A DNA stretch of 54,751 bases from a virus (lineage: Duplodnaviria; Heunggongvirae; Uroviricota; Caudoviricetes). The DNA is taken from the IMG/VR virus record IMGVR_UViG_2579779067_000001; one strand, written 5' to 3'. The translations under genes were made by a program, and so were the position numbers. Positions 9,493 through 39,795 of the stretch are shown here, in pieces. Below the pieces are notes generated by a model, which did no database searches, was not told the DNA's origin, and saw nothing but the letters and a program-made list of their open reading frames with translations. Positions within the stretch are counted from its first letter, which is position 1; every line of letters starts with the position of its first letter.

Positions 9493-9983
9493 TCATGAGT
9501 CTGTTAAATGACGTTCAGAAATTCATTGAAGCCCATCCGGGGTGTACTTCCGGAGACATTGCTGATGCTTTTGCTGGTTACTCACGGCAGCGCGTTCTGC
9601 AGTCAGCAAGCAAGTTACGTCAGAGTGGGCGTGTGGCTCACCGTTGTGAAGGGGATACACGCAGACATTTCCCGCGCCTGACTGAGAGAGCGCAGGAGCC
9701 GGAACCACAACCAGTTCGTGAAACCAGACCTGTGCGCAATTTCTATGTCGGCACTAACGACCCCCGGGTGATTTTGTGCCTGACCCGCCAGGCTGAAGAA
9801 CTGGAGTCCAGGGGCTTATTCCGTCGAGCTGCAACGGTGTGGATGGAGGCATTCCGTGAAAGCCACTCCCAGCCAGAACGAAACAATTTTCTGGCGCATC
9901 GAGAGCGGTGCTTACGGAAAAGCAGCAAGCGCGCTGCATCGGGTGAAGAGTGGTATCTGTCAGGGAATTACGTGGGGGCTTAA
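9489..9983 (+). CDS. hypothetical regulator, C-terminal PerC/ANR-like motif
   Basis: 164 aa; LESRGLFRRAATVWMEAF resembles the PerC-family signature (memory). Confidence 0.4.
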   Translation: MIMSLLNDVQKFIEAHPGCTSGDIADAFAGYSRQRVLQSASKLRQSGRVAHRCEGDTRRHFPRLTERAQEPEPQPVRETRPVRNFYVGTNDPRVILCLTRQAEELESRGLFRRAATVWMEAFRESHSQPERNNFLAHRERCLRKSSKRAASGEEWYLSGNYVGA

Positions 9984-10636
9984 TGAGTAATAAATATTGC
10001 CAGGCGCTGGTGGAGCTGCGGAACAAACCAGCCCATGAACTGAAGGAAGTGGGCGATCAGTGGCGCACGCCGGACAACATTTTCTGGGGAATTAACACCC
10101 TGTTTGGCCCGTTTGTTCTGGATCTGTTCACTGATGGTGATAACGCCAAATGTGCCGCTTATTACACTGCGGAAGACAACGCGCTGGCGCATGACTGGTC
10201 AGAACGTCTTGTGGAGCTTAAAGGTGCTGCCTTTGGTAATCCCCCGTACAGCCGCGCCAGTCAGCATGAGGGGCAATACATCACCGGCATGCGTTACATC
10301 ATGAAACATGCCAGTGCTATGCGTGATAAAGGCGGGCGCTATGTTTTCCTGATCAAAGCTGCCACCAGCGAAGTTTGGTGGCCGGAAGATGCAGACCATA
10401 TTGCTTTTATTCGCGGGCGTATTGGTTTTGAACTGCCAGCCTGGTTTATCCCGAAGGATGAGAAGCAGGTGCCGACAGGAGCTTTCTTCGCTGGTGCTAT
10501 TGCTGTTTTCGACAAGACCTGGAAGGGACCGGCAATCAGCTACATCGGGCGCGATGAACTTGAGGCATGTGGTGAGGCCTTTCTGGCGCAGGTTCGCCAG
10601 CAGGCAGAAAAACTGGTCAGGGAGATGGTGGCATGA
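9983..10636 (+). CDS. phage DNA N6-adenine methyltransferase (Dam-like orphan MTase)
   Basis: internal ATG at 9983 (TAATG overlap, GGGGG SD); NPPY motif (FGNPPYS); phage N6-adenine-methyltransferase family look. Confidence 0.8.
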   Translation: MSNKYCQALVELRNKPAHELKEVGDQWRTPDNIFWGINTLFGPFVLDLFTDGDNAKCAAYYTAEDNALAHDWSERLVELKGAAFGNPPYSRASQHEGQYITGMRYIMKHASAMRDKGGRYVFLIKAATSEVWWPEDADHIAFIRGRIGFELPAWFIPKDEKQVPTGAFFAGAIAVFDKTWKGPAISYIGRDELEACGEAFLAQVRQQAEKLVREMVA

Positions 10637-10959
10637 CGACGTTAACTCAATGCCAGCAGCAGGTGCTGGATATGCTGATTTCTTATCAGAAAGAACGTGG
10701 CTTCCCGCCAACCAATCAGGAGGTGGCAACCATGCTGGGATACCGTTCAGTGAATGCAGCGGTAGAACATCTTCGCGCACTGGAGAAAAAAGGCGTCATC
10801 ACGATAAAGCGTGGCGTGGCCCTGGGCATCACGCTTCATACCGCGGTGAAGGACGACGACAGCGAGGCGGTCGGGATTATCCGCTCACTGCTTGTCGGTG
10901 AGGAAAACGCCAGGCTGCGTGCAGCCCACTGGTTACATGAGAGGGGCCTGAAAGTATGA
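10633..10959 (+). CDS. LexA N-terminal DNA-binding-domain protein (no peptidase domain)
   Basis: 108 aa; QQQVLDMLISYQKERGFPPTNQEVATMLGYRSVNAAVEHLRALEKKGVI parallels LexA [50 protein letters not shown]. Confidence 0.7.
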   Translation: MTTLTQCQQQVLDMLISYQKERGFPPTNQEVATMLGYRSVNAAVEHLRALEKKGVITIKRGVALGITLHTAVKDDDSEAVGIIRSLLVGEENARLRAAHWLHERGLKV

Positions 10960-11345
10960 AGCTGATCCTGCCTTTCCCGCCCAGCGTGAACACGTACTGG
11001 CGACACCCCAACAAAGGGGCGTTTGCAGGTAAGAGCCTGATAAGCGCGGCGGGGCGCAAATTCCAGAGCGCGGCGTGTGCAGCAATAGTTGAGCAGTTAC
11101 GTCGTCTGCCAAAACCAACGTCGGCACCTGCTTCAGTGGAGATCGTGTTGTTTCCTCCGGATAACCGGATCCGCGATCTGGACAACTATAACAAGGCGCT
11201 GTTTGACGCCCTGACCCACGCGGGTGTGTGGGAAGACGACAGTCAGGTGAAAAGAATGCTGGTGGAGTGGGGACCGGTTATCCCGGAAGGGAAGGTCGAG
11301 ATCACTATCAGTAAGTACGAGAAAACGGCGGGTGCAGCCGCCTGA
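10956..11345 (+). CDS. rusA: Holliday junction resolvase RusA
   Basis: 129 aa; typical RusA N-terminus MKLILPFPPSVNTYW and size. Confidence 0.85.
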   Translation: MKLILPFPPSVNTYWRHPNKGAFAGKSLISAAGRKFQSAACAAIVEQLRRLPKPTSAPASVEIVLFPPDNRIRDLDNYNKALFDALTHAGVWEDDSQVKRMLVEWGPVIPEGKVEITISKYEKTAGAAA

Positions 11346-11364
11346 TTAAGAGGAGAAACGAAGA

Positions 11365-12162
11365 ATGAATAATCTGATGGTCATTGATGGTATTGAAGTT
11401 CGTCGTGATGCTTATGGTCGTTACAGCCTGAACGATCTGCACAGGGCTGCCGGTTCTCTGGATAAGCATAAGCCTGCATTCTGGCTCCGCAATGAGCAAA
11501 CTGAACGTTTAATAAGCGAGTTGCAGATTTGCAACTCGGTCAATATAGAGCCAGTTAACGTTATTCGTGGCGGAAATAACCAGGGGACGTATGTCTGCAA
11601 AGAACTGGTGTATGCCTATGCAATGTGGATCAGCCCGTCATTCCATCTGAAGGTGATCCGTACTTTCGACATGGTAACCAGCGCACCTGAAAAATTATCC
11701 GGACAGGCTGCTGACAAGATGCAGGCTGGCGTGATTCTGCTGGACTTTATGCGCCGGGAATTAAACCTGTCTAACTCATCAGTGCTTGGTGCCTGTCAGA
11801 AACTCCAGGAGGCTGTTGGCTTACCGAATCTGGCACCGCGCTATGCCATTGATGCTCCTGCTGACGCGCCTGATGGCTCAAGTCGCCCCACGCTGTCGCT
11901 GAGTGCACTGCTGAAACAGTATGGTATCCGCCTGACGGCTAATCAGGCATATCACCAGATGGTGAAGCTGGGGATCGTCGAGCAGCGCGAACGATACAGC
12001 CGTACCGCGATTAACAACATCAAAAAATTCTGGTCGCTGACAGCGAAAGGCTGCATGTTCGGCAAGAACATCACCAGTCCCGCAAATCCGCGCGAGACGC
12101 AGCCGCATTTCTTCGAATCCCGATTCCCTGAGCTGTTAAAGCTGCTCGATACCGTTCATTGA
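11365..12162 (+). CDS. KilA-N domain protein (antirepressor-like)
   Basis: 265 aa; N-terminal KilA-N pattern (MVIDGIEVRRDAYGRYSLNDL). Confidence 0.65.
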   Translation: MNNLMVIDGIEVRRDAYGRYSLNDLHRAAGSLDKHKPAFWLRNEQTERLISELQICNSVNIEPVNVIRGGNNQGTYVCKELVYAYAMWISPSFHLKVIRTFDMVTSAPEKLSGQAADKMQAGVILLDFMRRELNLSNSSVLGACQKLQEAVGLPNLAPRYAIDAPADAPDGSSRPTLSLSALLKQYGIRLTANQAYHQMVKLGIVEQRERYSRTAINNIKKFWSLTAKGCMFGKNITSPANPRETQPHFFESRFPELLKLLDTVH

Positions 12163-12163
12163 G

Positions 12164-13159
12164 GTGACCGTGAGAGCACTACTGACTTCTGAAATTGCCC
12201 CGCGTATGGGGATCGTATTGTTCAGGCCAGGTTCAGAGCTGATGCCCCTGTTTATGCAGGGGCGTGTCCTGCTGGAGCCTGAGCCGGAACGTTATTCATC
12301 TTTCGCCAGTGGTGCCGTTCCGGCGGCATCACAACCGCTGGTGGATGATCCTGCCGTTCGGGCCGTGTTCCGCAATGAGGCAGTGATCCGTCGTGCTGGT
12401 GGCGTGGAATGTCTTGAAAGCTGGTTACTTCGTGAAAAGGGCTGTCAGTGGCCTCATTCCGACTGGCACAGCGAGAACATTACCACAATGCGACACGCTC
12501 CGGGCGCAATCCGTCTGTGCTGGCACTGCGATAACCAGCTGCGCGATCAGTTCACGGAACGGCTGGAATCAATGGCAACGGATAACTGTGCCCGCTGGGT
12601 GTTGTCTGTTGTGCGTCGGGATCTCGGTTTTGATGACAGTCACGTTGTGACAATGCCGGAACTGTGCTGGTGGCTGATTCGTAATGACCTGGCGGATGCC
12701 TTACCGGAAAGTGCAGCCCGTAAGGCACTGAGATTACCGAAGCCTGTTGTGCCGTCTGTCACCCGGGAAAGTGACCTTGTGCCTTCGGTTCCTGCCACCA
12801 GCATCATCCAGGATAAGGCGAAAAAGATGCTGGCGCTGAAAGTGGATCCGGAGTCGCCGGAGTCTTTTATGTTACGCCCCAAACGTCGCCGCTGGGTTAA
12901 TGAAAAGTACACGCGCTGGGTTAAGACGCAGCCGTGCGCATGTTGTGGAAAGCCTGCTGATGATGCCCACCACCTGATAGGTCACGGTCAGGGTGGAATG
13001 GGTACAAAAGCGCATGACCTTTTTGTGTTGCCTTTGTGCAGAAAGCATCACGACGAGCTGCATGCGGATACCGTGGTATTTGAAGAGAAGTATGGCTCCC
13101 AGTTGGAGCTGATATTTCGTTTTATTGATCGTGCGCTGGCAATTGGCGTGCTGGCCTGA
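12164..13159 (+). CDS. prophage protein with C-terminal Cys/His zinc-binding nuclease-like domain (DUF968/YbcO-like)
   Basis: 331 aa; GTG start; C-terminal CACCGKPADDAHHL...CRKHHDELH motif; nin-region position before Q. Confidence 0.5.
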   Translation: MTVRALLTSEIAPRMGIVLFRPGSELMPLFMQGRVLLEPEPERYSSFASGAVPAASQPLVDDPAVRAVFRNEAVIRRAGGVECLESWLLREKGCQWPHSDWHSENITTMRHAPGAIRLCWHCDNQLRDQFTERLESMATDNCARWVLSVVRRDLGFDDSHVVTMPELCWWLIRNDLADALPESAARKALRLPKPVVPSVTRESDLVPSVPATSIIQDKAKKMLALKVDPESPESFMLRPKRRRWVNEKYTRWVKTQPCACCGKPADDAHHLIGHGQGGMGTKAHDLFVLPLCRKHHDELHADTVVFEEKYGSQLELIFRFIDRALAIGVLA

Positions 13160-13173
13160 TTTGGTGGAGAAAG

Positions 13174-13524
13174 TTGATGCGTGATATGTATGAAGTATTG
13201 GACCGCTGGGGAGCATGGGCTGCAGCAGAAAATAGTGGTGTGGACTGGCAGCCGATAGCGGCTGGTTTCAAGGGACTTTTACCACACGGTAAAAAGTCAC
13301 GTCTCCAGTGTGATGATGATGAAGGCATCATGATAGATAGTTGTGTGGCTAGGTTGCGTAAATATAAGCCGGAAGAGTATGAGCTGATAATTGCTCACTT
13401 TGTTATCGGTATCTCATTACGCACTATTGCGAAGAAGAGAAAATGCTCTGATGGGACTATAAGAAAAAAGTTGCAAGCTGCATTGGGATTTATTGATGCA
13501 GTTATATATATAATACATGGGTAA
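13174..13524 (+). CDS. antitermination protein Q (QuuD-like small Q)
   Basis: 116 aa; strong resemblance to DLP12 QuuD (LERWGAWAA...IAAGFKGL...RLQCDDD); position just before lysis module. Confidence 0.75.
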   Translation: MMRDMYEVLDRWGAWAAAENSGVDWQPIAAGFKGLLPHGKKSRLQCDDDEGIMIDSCVARLRKYKPEEYELIIAHFVIGISLRTIAKKRKCSDGTIRKKLQAALGFIDAVIYIIHG

Positions 13525-13531
13525 TTTATTA

Positions 13532-13550
13532 GACGGCCATATTGGCCGTC
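13532..13550. terminator. bidirectional hairpin between convergent Q and moron genes
   Basis: perfect inverted repeat GACGGCCA-TAT-TGGCCGTC in AT-rich context. Confidence 0.5.
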
Positions 13551-14736
13551 AGCTAAATAAATATGTAATAGCATAAGGCGTAAGTAAAAAGTAGAATCTA
13601 AATGTAAGATATAAGCCACATAAAACTATAATTCCTAATGAGGCAAAAACAACTTTCTGAACAAGCAATCTTGTGGTTAAACTATCAAATGTATCCTTTA
13701 TATCTTCGTAAATAGCCTTGAAGTTATATTCTGCTTGTTGTTTTTTATGATTTAACTCATCATTTATTGCTGTTAAAGTTTGCCATTGATTAAATAGAAC
13801 AAATAGAATCATAATAGTGAAGAACAATGCACCCAACACTACAGCTGTGTTTATTAATGCTTGACTATCCCAACCATTAGCCTGCTTCATTTGAGTCGCA
13901 ACGATAATTGTTGCGACGGGGATACCTAATATCTGATTTTGTATGTCACTGAATACTTTATGTATTTTCCCCATCTCTTCTATTTTGGCTACTCGTAACT
14001 GATCCAGTATTTTCTCGTAAGAAAAACCAGAAACGAATACTTTGTATCCTTTTTGATAACTTTCATAAAGTTGTCCTAAATCCCTTAACATGAAGGAAAA
14101 AGAGGTTTCTTTAGTTTTAGATTCACATGATGATTTTATACTACTTGCTAAAATAGTAAGTTTTTGATCTTTATGCGTATCTTCTGCAAAGTTTGCGATC
14201 AAATTATGAATCAGATCTCCATTAACATTCATAAGATCATCGCTAGAATAATTTACTGGAATTTTTAGTACGTTGGATTCGACGAATACCAATTCAAAAT
14301 TTGTTTCATCTAAATAAGCAGAACAATCTTTGAATAAAGTAATTAAGCTCAAAACATCTCTGTACTTGGATATAATAGCAGGCGACTTTTTATCCCTGTT
14401 GTGATAATTAAGTTCGATTATAAAGAAGTTACTGGCTTCCTTTATCCTATTTTTAGGATTTTTTAAATACTCATTAAAAGAGAAATGTAGCTGCCCCAAT
14501 CGTAATTTGGGGGGGGTTATATGTAAGGTTATAGTTTGGCCTAACTCAATGTTGCCAGATTCAAGGGTGATGCCAAAATCATGGGGATTCTCTGTGATAT
14601 CGTTGATGATGTCACAGAGCTCCTCGTTTGAAAGAATGAGTGATGCTTCAGATAGGGTACCTGCAAATGTAGCGGCCTTGTAAATAGTCACTAAGTCTTT
14701 GAAGGTTCTCTGATTGTTACTGCTCATCCTCTTCAC
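13549..14736 (-). CDS. membrane protein of unknown function (soluble N-terminal domain + 2-3 C-terminal TM helices)
   Basis: 395-aa ORF; AT-rich; hydrophobic segments ALINTAVVLGALFFTIMILFVLF and VVFASLGIIVLCGLYLTFRFYFLL; 20-nt overlap with upstream gene. Confidence 0.7.
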   Translation of the reverse strand: MKRMSSNNQRTFKDLVTIYKAATFAGTLSEASLILSNEELCDIINDITENPHDFGITLESGNIELGQTITLHITPPKLRLGQLHFSFNEYLKNPKNRIKEASNFFIIELNYHNRDKKSPAIISKYRDVLSLITLFKDCSAYLDETNFELVFVESNVLKIPVNYSSDDLMNVNGDLIHNLIANFAEDTHKDQKLTILASSIKSSCESKTKETSFSFMLRDLGQLYESYQKGYKVFVSGFSYEKILDQLRVAKIEEMGKIHKVFSDIQNQILGIPVATIIVATQMKQANGWDSQALINTAVVLGALFFTIMILFVLFNQWQTLTAINDELNHKKQQAEYNFKAIYEDIKDTFDSLTTRLLVQKVVFASLGIIVLCGLYLTFRFYFLLTPYAITYLFS

Positions 14737-15751
14737 CTAATTCTGATAAGATCTCTGATCTTAGCGTATCCGGAATCTCGGTAAGTATCAATTTATCGTT
14801 TTCTGAATCATAAAGAACGCTGCCATCATGCAAGGCCGCACGCTCGAATTTCAGAGACCAATGTTTGGACTTTCCTTTGAAACTAACAAGCCCACGTATA
14901 ACGTTGCCATCAGGCACGAACCCATCAGAGAACTCCAGATCGTCATTGGTTAACTTTTCAACTAACAACTCAGGAGCAGTTGGCCATATCTCGTTTGCAA
15001 AAATTTGAGTGTCGAAAGTTTCACCAGAACGATTTAAATTTTTTAATTTTTCATGAGCCTTATTTAGGAACTCTTCACGTGCCTCTGGTTCAAAACCTCT
15101 TTCAGTAGCAAATTCTAAAAGTGCATTCCGTAATTTTGTTGTTTCTTGTTTGGCAATTAGAATATCGTTGCAACCTAAAAACTTTTTGAAATAACCTGCT
15201 ACTGAATTTTGCCCCTTTAGAAAGCTAATATATCTCTCTTTGCCATTCTGGCGCCCAGTTAAGTCAATTCGTCCCGCTACTCGAAGTTTAGCAATGTCTA
15301 GATATTCACTTTCTTGAATTTCAAAATCGTGGACTGAAGAGCCAACTGCTGATGTTAGGATTGCAACCATCAAATAATGATTTCCATTTACCTCATTATG
15401 GGCAATTATTACATAACCACCAGTAGACATTGATTCATCATCGGCTCTGGCTTTTAAATGATTGATCATTCGGATACTAGTATCATAAAAACTATGTGTT
15501 TTATTTACGAAATAATCATCAACGATATTACCCATAGGGTAACTATCGCGGTCATCTTCAAATTTCCCATATCCTTTACCTGCTCTCCCAGAGTACCTTT
15601 CAGTAAGTGCGTTAGAGAGGTCTTTTGATGCTTGCTGAACAGGTTTTTCTGAAGGACAAGGAATAATGGTGGCTAACCCCTGTTGTTCCTTGTTCATAAT
15701 GTGAACAATAAACTTATGAGTGATATTAGTGGGGGTCGCTGATGCAGTCAT
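14717..15751 (-). CDS. YejK/NdpA-family nucleoid-associated protein homolog
   Basis: 344 aa; by-eye alignment to E. coli YejK (GGYVIIAHNEVNGNHYLMVAILTS vs [30 protein letters not shown]...ERYISFLKG vs RIDLTE...TRYLTFLKG); AGGA SD before ATG. Confidence 0.75.
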   Translation of the reverse strand: MTASATPTNITHKFIVHIMNKEQQGLATIIPCPSEKPVQQASKDLSNALTERYSGRAGKGYGKFEDDRDSYPMGNIVDDYFVNKTHSFYDTSIRMINHLKARADDESMSTGGYVIIAHNEVNGNHYLMVAILTSAVGSSVHDFEIQESEYLDIAKLRVAGRIDLTGRQNGKERYISFLKGQNSVAGYFKKFLGCNDILIAKQETTKLRNALLEFATERGFEPEAREEFLNKAHEKLKNLNRSGETFDTQIFANEIWPTAPELLVEKLTNDDLEFSDGFVPDGNVIRGLVSFKGKSKHWSLKFERAALHDGSVLYDSENDKLILTEIPDTLRSEILSELGEEDEQ

Positions 15752-38727: not shown

Positions 38728-39795
38728 TTAATGAAATTTATCTCGGATGAATTGTTGCGATGGTTTTTCAATAAATATATATGACATATAGCTAATTGCC
38801 ATTAATGTAAGCATGAATAAAATGAATACCTTGGGGCTGTAAAAAAGATCGCGTCCATAGCCAATCTTGTCAGCTAAATAAACAACAATGATTTGCAAAG
38901 GAAAATGTAAAAGATAAGATGAATAACTGATATCGCCCAACCATTCAATTTTTTTTCCAAAATCGTTTCGTATTGCGCTAATTGATACAAGGAAAAAGAT
39001 TATGGAGGTAAATCCGAATAAGATAATTGAGAATATATCTGCTACTTGCAGGGTAAAGATAACTCCCCATGAGATCAATAGAAAAACACAAGCAAAAATA
39101 AAAAATAACTTTGCGCTAATATTTTTTATGGCCGCAATCGTAATTTTATAAGTCAGACCACCAATAAAGAAAGAGAATGCGCCGATCATTATGGGATTGT
39201 TAATTTTGAAAAAGTAGTACGACAATGCAACTATTAAAATTGATATGAATGTTGTTTTTGATGTGAACTTGCATAATATAAAAAATATCATGTACATAAG
39301 TACTTCAATCGACACGGACCATGTCGGGGCGTTGAAGGACCAACCTCGCTCAAATCCCCATGATTGAATCATCAATAAATTCAGAATGGCATGGTAAATG
39401 TCATTCATAGGATAAACAAAAAAATAATTATGACTTTTAAAGAAAATAATTTGTAATATTGCCACGGCAGCAAATGTAAATATATAAAGTGGATATAATC
39501 TACTGACACGGTTAACTATAAAAGTTTTTGCTGAGGTTTTATTGCTGTGTATATTGTCAGCGTATAGATAAAAAAATATGAATCCAGAAATCATAAAAAA
39601 CAATTCGACAGCATATAAACCGTAATGATAAAAGACGGAAAAAAATTCATAAAAAGGTTGGCGGTTTATGATTATGTCAGATGCAGCATTCTTTTTCATA
39701 AAAAAATGTTGCCAATGCCATAACACAACGGAAAGTGCGGCAAATCCTCTCAGAACATCCAGGGTATATATTCTCTTCCCAAAAACATTCGTCAC
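38728..39795 (-). CDS. acyltransferase family 3 membrane protein (O-antigen/LPS O-acetyltransferase-like)
   Basis: 355 aa; multi-TM; N-terminal LDVLRGFAALSVVLWHWQHFF signature; AT-rich; at prophage right end. Confidence 0.8.
   Translation of the reverse strand: MTNVFGKRIYTLDVLRGFAALSVVLWHWQHFFMKKNAASDIIINRQPFYEFFSVFYHYGLYAVELFFMISGFIFFYLYADNIHSNKTSAKTFIVNRVSRLYPLYIFTFAAVAILQIIFFKSHNYFFVYPMNDIYHAILNLLMIQSWGFERGWSFNAPTWSVSIEVLMYMIFFILCKFTSKTTFISILIVALSYYFFKINNPIMIGAFSFFIGGLTYKITIAAIKNISAKLFFIFACVFLLISWGVIFTLQVADIFSIILFGFTSIIFFLVSISAIRNDFGKKIEWLGDISYSSYLLHFPLQIIVVYLADKIGYGRDLFYSPKVFILFMLTLMAISYMSYIFIEKPSQQFIRDKFH

Follow-up and report, generated by a model that had tools for sequence, protein, structure and literature searches.

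A LexA DNA-binding domain without the S24 peptidase domain in the early-right operon of an SfII-like prophage: a candidate RecA-insensitive LexA surrogate

What might a temperate phage gain from a LexA protein that is reduced to its DNA-binding domain? The question is raised by the IMG/VR record IMGVR_UViG_2579779067_000001, a stretch of 54,751 nucleotides from a member of the Caudoviricetes (hereafter the window), in which a short gene resembling the 5' part of lexA lies between dam and rusA. A preliminary description of this DNA had placed the open reading frame (ORF) at 10633-10959, had read its product as the LexA N-terminal winged helix without the S24 peptidase/dimerisation domain, and had suggested that such a non-cleavable binder of SOS boxes could tie the phage to the SOS status of its host. 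The structural part of this claim, a phage-borne LexA winged helix that lacks the S24 domain, is fully supported by the data presented here, and its functional part is plausible. The frame runs from ATG to TGA at exactly these positions, and the gene and the two parts of its product are as follows.

10633-10959, plus strand: stand-alone LexA-DNA-binding-domain gene, ATG-to-TGA ORF of 327 bp encoding 108 aa.
10633-10839, plus strand: LexA-type winged helix-turn-helix, residues 1-69, with the recognition helix at residues 40-52 and the wing at 56-68.
10855-10941, plus strand: two-helix hairpin, residues 75-103, with helices at 75-88 and 93-103 in the structure models.

The Pfam search that had been proposed as a check on the LexA assignment returned LexA_DNA_bind (PF01726) over residues 1-61, with E=4.1e-18 and a score of 65.4 bits (gathering threshold 23.7). 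By BLASTP, the 108-aa protein aligns without gaps to E. coli LexA over residues 1-68, with 34/68 identities (50%, E=2e-20); comparison with a LexA profile in hhalign gives a probability of 99.9%, and all nine matches (9/9) in a PDB sequence search are LexA proteins. This match to the LexA N-terminal domain (NTD) far exceeds chance. Two AlphaFold2 (AF2) models, with a predicted local distance difference test score (pLDDT) of 76 and 80, show helices at residues 6-22, 28-35 and 40-52 followed by a beta-hairpin wing, and superpose in Foldseek on the LexA structures 1LEA and 3JSO with a root mean square deviation of 1.2-1.4 Å over 66-68 residues. Compared with a canonical LexA, the winged helix-turn-helix (wHTH) is thus present, whereas the rest is absent: Peptidase_S24 (PF00717) has no match in the 108-aa protein, the Ser119/Lys156 dyad of LexA is lacking, the protein stops at residue 108, and its score of 62.5 bits against the NCBIfam lexA equivalog model TIGR00498 (model positions 1-91 of 203 covered) lies under the cutoff of 110.95. 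A full-length match is found to the phage family phrog_362 (residues 1-108 against profile positions 1-106 of 106, E=1.9e-57), and the window protein shares with PHROG 362 the two-helix tail and the place immediately upstream of rusA.

Most of the residues with which LexA contacts DNA are retained. For helix 3 the published list of contact residues comprises S39, N41, A42, E44 and E45 (PMC3091678), of which four out of five are kept and E44 is replaced by Val in the window protein. Across the family, 20 wHTH positions are invariant or nearly so (L4, Q8, V11, G23, P25, P26, T27, E30, A32, G36, S39, N41, L50, K53, G54, I56, G61, R64, G65 and I66), and all 20 are identical in E. coli LexA. The recognition helix as a whole matches that of the host E. 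coli LexA at 10 of 15 positions, N41 being retained. Operator-bound LexA has an extensive NTD-NTD interface that is synergistic with DNA binding (PMC3159453), so that two NTDs, if tethered or paired, could in principle measure an SOS box even when the C-terminal domain (CTD) is missing.

At one of these positions the window copy departs from its relatives.

10822-10824, plus strand: codon 64, CTG (Leu) where relatives have CGG (Arg); R64L, at the tip of the wing.

Arg64 is found in 79/80 IMG/VR loci and in 49/50 unique alleles, and R64 is invariant in 13/13 aligned LexA sequences. Between the window gene and the best-matching complete E. coli genomes, one base in codon 64 is the only difference, and the Leu64 allele occurs otherwise only in the IMG/VR contig IMGVR_UViG_2579778807_000002 (L011). 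The window allele may be a weakened variant, with DNA binding below that of the common allele.

The two-helix tail had been missed in the preliminary description. In the AF2 models it is connected to the winged helix by a linker (residues 69-74) with pLDDT <50, the tail helices themselves having pLDDT 79-88. Relatives with as little as 37% identity keep the pattern EAVxxIRxLLxxxxxARxRAxxxLxxxG, and A97 and L101 never vary. We infer that this hairpin takes the place of the S24 domain as a dimerisation module. In hhalign the LexA profile alignment reaches phage residue 91 and sets 'LLVGEE' opposite the cleavage stretch 'VAAGEP' of LexA; close relatives read 'LLAGEE' in a MAFFT alignment, and Ala-Gly is not kept in distant members. 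The Ala84-Gly85 cleavage site of canonical LexA is not found in the phage protein, nor is there a protease that would use such a site. A functional vestigial or decoy cleavage site in the tail was considered and rejected, as distant members do not share the Ala-Gly pair and a helix is predicted for the segment; 'LLVGEE' would at most be a vestige of the point at which an ancestral lexA was truncated.

The gene is under strong constraint and is widespread. Across 50 distinct alleles the ratio of nonsynonymous to synonymous polymorphism (pN/pS) is 0.048 overall, with values of 0.01 for the wHTH and 0.125 for the tail, and purifying selection of this strength points to a working protein in a real frame, not to debris. 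Intact orthologues of 104-118 aa, with the same architecture and genome position, are found down to 37% identity. The gene is present in 2233/5426 complete E. coli genomes (~40%), labelled 'LexA family transcriptional regulator', and also in mEp460, in Stx2a- and Stx2c-converting phages and in others. In a hidden Markov model (HMM) search of 1.84 billion representatives, 11,078 proteins were found at E≤0.001, most of them genuine LexA, and a small set of 104-135-aa proteins aligns over the entire profile, the tail included. A scan of genome contigs with a profile of the close relatives returned only Shigella and Citrobacter loci besides genuine LexA genes. The family is already catalogued, a point likewise missed before, and the sequence is not new: it comprises SfII_44 (96% identical to the window protein), RefSeq WP_000210173.1 (different at residue 64 only) and PHROG 362, where the label is 'transcriptional repressor'. 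The database also holds many frameshifted or fused variants of the gene. In a Foldseek comparison with viral models, stand-alone LexA DNA-binding-domain proteins of 65-150 aa are frequent in phages. Natural tandem double LexA DNA-binding domains of ~140-220 aa, again without S24, were seen as well (P0136, P0139, P0160, P0126 and P0144); these are single-chain 'pseudo-dimers', a second S24-less way to pair LexA NTDs.

The genomic context bears out the claim that the gene is encoded by a phage. The order of genes in the window is that of a prophage: a proA-like gene, tRNA-Thr(CGT), integrase, cI/cro, a CII-like gene, an O-like replication gene, PerC/YfdN and dam, and from dam on the lexA-like gene, rusA, KilA-N, DUF968, Q, lysis and terminase. 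The immunity region is 98.7% identical to that of Shigella phage SfII, in which the orthologue SfII_44 is annotated as 'LexA DNA binding domain protein'. The element is an SfII-like prophage integrated at tRNA-Thr, with the lexA-like gene in the early-right (nin-like) operon. The proA-like gene, of the aldehyde-dehydrogenase family, and the tRNA-Thr(CGT) gene that forms the integration site (1369-1444) occupy window positions 1-1444, and the integrase gene follows at 1459-2622. The features around the lexA-like gene that matter for its expression and possible targets are listed here.

6606-7298, minus strand: cI-like repressor gene, helix-turn-helix (HTH) plus S24.
9983-10636, plus strand: dam, phage Dam-type N6-adenine methyltransferase (Pfam Dam, E=1e-45).
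10620-10636, plus strand: GGGAG ribosome-binding site and ATGA overlap with the dam stop codon, read from the sequence.
10956-11345, plus strand: rusA, Holliday-junction resolvase (Pfam RusA), its start overlapping the stop codon of the lexA-like gene.
13174-13524: Q gene, downstream of the lexA-like gene.

The GGGAG Shine-Dalgarno sequence stands 8 nt 5' of the start codon of the lexA-like gene. No sigma-70-like promoter was found upstream of the gene, and the count of promoter-like sites over 6400-13700 is under the shuffle expectation. Because such a promoter is missing and the stop and start codons overlap, the gene is assigned to the early rightward transcript; on this arrangement, the protein would be made in lytic development and not for maintenance of the lysogen.

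The linkage to rusA, another point that had escaped the preliminary description, is close. rusA starts at +323 in 80/80 close IMG/VR loci, and it lies 3' on the same strand in every lineage that could be read (P0123, P0127, P0131, P0137, P0150 and P0122, 37-47% identical to the window protein), in most of them immediately. In the distant lineages L005-L010 and L091-L094, rusA is the next same-strand gene or the next but one; L009 has a 67-aa ORF between the lexA-like gene and rusA, and L094 an opposite-strand gene. On the upstream side the neighbours vary (Dam, C5 or D12 methyltransferase, a replication gene or a small ORF), dam itself being present in ~50/80 related loci; since rusA is constant while they change, it is the invariant partner.

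We tentatively read the protein as a RecA-insensitive LexA surrogate that binds SOS-type operators early in lytic growth, a reading to which we attach a probability somewhat short of even. Its LexA-type winged helix would still read SOS-type half-sites (CTGT), and the two-helix hairpin, acting through a flexible linker, would pair two DNA-binding domains. Transcribed in the pR, nin-like early rightward operon and coupled in translation to dam and rusA, the protein would appear after prophage induction or infection, while the host LexA is being destroyed. Because it has neither cleavage site nor protease, RecA* should be unable to remove it. The surrogate could then re-occupy LexA operators, both at host SOS promoters and at phage-borne boxes such as the one inside cI (see below), so that the SOS programme would be damped or limited in time during lytic growth. 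A stronger form of the proposal, which we consider unlikely, makes the whole family a RecA-proof LexA surrogate, present in ~40% of E. coli strains and serving as a lytic 'SOS off-switch' that is paired functionally with rusA. It would silence the host SOS regulon again, including ruvAB, which encodes competitors of RusA, and would act on colicins, on antirepressors that rival prophages keep under SOS control and on the operator in the phage's own cI gene. ruvAB is an SOS operon, and interference of RuvA with RusA at junctions has been reported; speculatively, a LexA surrogate made alongside RusA could clear the way for the phage resolvase, and such a function would join the surrogate proposal to one centred on RusA.

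Are there operators on which such a protein could act? SOS boxes were scored with a matrix built from E. coli sites, one of which is identical to the box in the window.

7070-7089: candidate SOS (LexA) operator, TACTGTTTTTATATACAGTA, inside the cI-like gene at 6606-7298 (minus strand).

This box has 18/20 matches to the textbook consensus and is the sole strong LexA box in the window. The cI codons in which it is embedded (S-N-T-V-Y-K-N-S-N-N) encode the linker from the HTH to the S24 domain. In five cI alleles (SfII type, L016 type, ST64B, Klebsiella phage 1 LV-2017 and L005; ~70% nucleotide identity at the lowest) the CTGT and ACAG half-sites are conserved and the flanking linker residues vary. 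That the half-sites are kept while the linker residues change points to selection at the DNA level, and thus to a selected operator. The box is a candidate target of host LexA and possibly of the lexA-like protein; it might serve an internal or antisense SOS-controlled promoter, or act as a roadblock, and no promoter-like site at the box passed a simple scan. An obligatory link between the cI box and the lexA-like gene was considered and rejected, as each occurs without the other.

Related loci provide further candidate operators. When eight lineages were searched without bias for shared palindromes (arms of 5 nt, spacers of 0-14 nt) within ~6 kb of the gene, only the SOS-box palindrome ACTGT-N8-ACAGT came up in ≥5/8 of them. 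Loci L009 and L091, whose lexA-like proteins are 43% identical to each other, have a strong SOS box 420-440 bp 5' of the gene and in the same orientation. In L009 (5531-5579) the box comes directly after a TTGCAA-17-AATAAT promoter-like site; in L091 (4476-4580) it follows a terminator-like hairpin and, by eye, a TTGCAT-17-AATACT element. In both, the box stands at the head of a unit made up of a homologous ORF of 75-82 aa, the lexA-like gene, rusA, DUF968 and Q. Shuffled sequence gives a background of 0.01 boxes of ≥20 bits per 55 kb. This Q-containing segment appears to be under direct LexA control. A repressor-like gene nearby in L009 encodes 128 aa with an HTH and no S24 domain; as this repressor lacks S24, the small ORF could encode an antirepressor.

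Other boxes were noted at these loci. The box TACTGTAAAAATAAACAGTG, at 5453-5472 of L023, overlaps the start of a gene for a 350-aa DPPY-motif DNA methyltransferase past the Q region; it recurs in ~20 of the loci L011-L090, where it lies 3.9-5.9 kb 3' of the lexA-like gene, and is absent from the window. A similar box precedes an N6_N4_Mtase gene in L091 (7739-7758). These positions suggest phage methyltransferases under LexA control. In L086, the box TACTGTATTTATGAACAGTG (21.5 bits) lies between rusA and a KilA-N-like gene, ~764 nt downstream of the start of the lexA-like gene (locus ~974-993), and the KilA-N-like, antirepressor-like gene may be LexA-controlled.

Several observations weigh against a surrogate that acts on SOS boxes. 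In the reading head, E44 is never Glu across the family (V, A, T, F, L or Y instead), and P40 is changed to Val and R28 to Asn relative to E. coli LexA. LexA binding requires dimerisation (comment on lexA51, PMC3159453), so that in the phage protein the tail would have to supply it, and the predicted template modelling score (pTM) of 0.5 in the AF2 models leaves the arrangement of the domains loose. The 27-bit score of the window box is partly circular, owing to the identical site in the matrix, and the cI box also occurs in ST64B and the Klebsiella phage, both without a lexA-like gene. Within 6 kb, about half of the 80 related loci lack an SOS box of ≥17 bits; L006-L008 and L092-L094 yielded none even at a threshold of 13-14 bits, and matches to CTGT-N8-ACAG show no general enrichment in the window (26 against 17±4 expected). 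What is invariantly linked to the gene is rusA and not an SOS box, and its place inside a lytic early operon is not that of an obvious regulator expressed in the lysogen. In the literature on this family we found annotation mentions only and no functional study. Finally, gp6 of GIL01, the closest precedent, is an activator with no binding to LexA boxes (PMC6182141).

This precedent leads to a different function for the same domain. gp6 of the Bacillus tectivirus GIL01 consists of a wHTH only and is 44% identical to the NTD of the host LexA (Fornelos et al., 2018; PMC6182141). Its target is a palindrome unlike the LexA boxes, GaCACAC-GTGTGaC, which is located at -43.5 of the late promoter and overlaps a -35 element; it can bind along with LexA, it activates the promoter, and its K38 is essential for binding and determines specificity (PMC6182141). 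A retargeted transcription factor of this type would recognise a phage-specific operator, SOS-like but distinct, and would time the lytic programme by activating or repressing a phage promoter while leaving host SOS boxes unaffected, which we regard as possible, if on the doubtful side. Besides gp6 itself, in which a truncated LexA homologue is seen to bind another palindrome and to activate transcription (PMC6182141), the family-wide loss of E44 with the changes at P40 and R28, the repressor label of PHROG 362 and the commonness of stand-alone LexA_DNA_bind proteins in phage proteomes are in line with retargeting. However, the recognition helix is far nearer to that of the host LexA than is the case for gp6, which matches Bacillus LexA at ~6/15 positions and has K38 at the N41-equivalent position; the window protein has Asn there, not a K38-type residue. 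Moreover, the palindrome search (5-nt arms) in the eight lineages turned up no recurrent motif other than the SOS type near the gene, the early-right operon around it has virtually no intergenic room for an operator, and late transcription in lambdoid phages is the task of Q, encoded here at 13174-13524. The gp6 case indicates that truncated LexA homologues can be retargeted, and the present family looks less diverged in its reading head.

The constant neighbourhood of rusA allows another explanation, namely a small DNA-binding or DNA-bending factor that assists or regulates Holliday-junction resolution or recombination-dependent replication, with little or no sequence-specific regulation. In lambda, NinH next to Rap has a comparable genome position. 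The 4-nt overlap with rusA in 80/80 close loci, the presence of rusA as the next gene or the next but one in every distant lineage examined while upstream neighbours vary, and the frequent occurrence of DNA methyltransferases upstream, which gives the region the look of a DNA-metabolism cluster, all fit an accessory of RusA. Still, we hold this to be improbable: RusA is a stand-alone resolvase that is found behind unrelated genes in other prophages, the intervening 67-aa ORF (L009) or opposite-strand gene (L094) indicates that the coupling is not obligatory, the synteny could reflect a single mosaic module, and the very strong constraint on the base-reading positions of LexA argues for sequence-specific recognition. 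The same constraint makes it very improbable indeed that the gene, generally or in this copy, is a non-functional remnant of a captured lexA. The private R64L of the window allele, at a position invariant in LexA, and the many frameshifted or fused variants could be taken as signs of decay, whereas the low pN/pS of the family and above all of its wHTH, the intact 104-118-aa orthologues with unchanged architecture and position down to 37% identity, and the intact ORF in the window speak for a gene in use.

As the sequence feature is already catalogued, its value lies in the function and not in the discovery of an ORF. In E. coli, prophage induction, the release of Shiga toxin, mutagenesis and tolerance to antibiotics all pass through LexA. 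If the protein is a LexA surrogate that cannot be cleaved and sits on LexA operators, the SOS response would have a brake or timer on the phage side that has gone unrecognised, and the protein would take part in the competition between co-resident prophages. If it is instead retargeted like gp6 of GIL01, it would be an unknown regulator within the best-studied class of temperate phages.

Elsewhere in the window, the late region contains an Acyl_transf_3 gene (38728-39795, minus strand, 355 aa) that is similar to O-antigen acetyltransferase genes from serotype-converting phages. A two-gene insertion on the minus strand (13549-15751) separates Q from the holin gene, where SfII has other genes; it encodes a 395-aa protein without a Pfam or PADLOC match and a protein of 344 aa homologous to the 37-kDa nucleoid-associated protein (NA37/YejK family, E=8e-69). 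PADLOC gave no meaningful match to a defence system. Accessory cargo was seen in the nin-like region of related loci: L009 carries at 3863-5232 a pair of CdiI_2 (a faint match) and bacterial RNase A that resembles a toxin/immunity module, and L091 has at 8794-10357 an AcrVA2-like gene adjoining cas1.

How does the protein compare with known systems? With E. coli LexA (1LEA, 3JSO) it shares the wHTH fold and S39, N41, A42, E45, K53, G54 and G65, as well as R64 in the family consensus. In contrast to E. coli LexA, it has V44, V40 and N28, and L64 in this copy, and it has no S24 domain, Ser119/Lys156 dyad or functional Ala-Gly site, their place being taken by a 35-residue two-helix tail. E. coli LexA is moreover an autoregulated host gene, whereas the phage protein is encoded in a lytic operon. 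The LexA 1-84 cleavage fragment is, like the phage protein, an NTD without CTD; it binds weakly and is rapidly degraded, whereas the phage protein has a conserved tail of its own and different termini. As a functional model, LexA(Ind-) mutants come to mind, in which SOS boxes would be occupied irrespective of RecA*, but Ind- mutants keep the CTD dimer.

Among phage proteins, gp7 of GIL01 keeps LexA operators occupied despite RecA* (PMC4551915); it differs in not being a LexA homologue and in acting by binding host LexA, not DNA. PHROG 362, SfII_44 and WP_000210173.1 belong to the same family as the window protein, and these entries are annotation-only, with no target or mechanism assigned. The nearest characterised analogue is gp6 of GIL01, likewise a phage-encoded LexA DNA-binding domain alone, made from an early operon after SOS induction, which shows that truncated LexA homologues without S24 bind palindromic DNA. 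It differs from the window protein in its length of 66 aa, in having no C-terminal hairpin and no linkage to rusA, and in belonging to another type of phage with hosts of another phylum. What sets the family described here apart is its conserved tail, its strict linkage to rusA and its very wide distribution.

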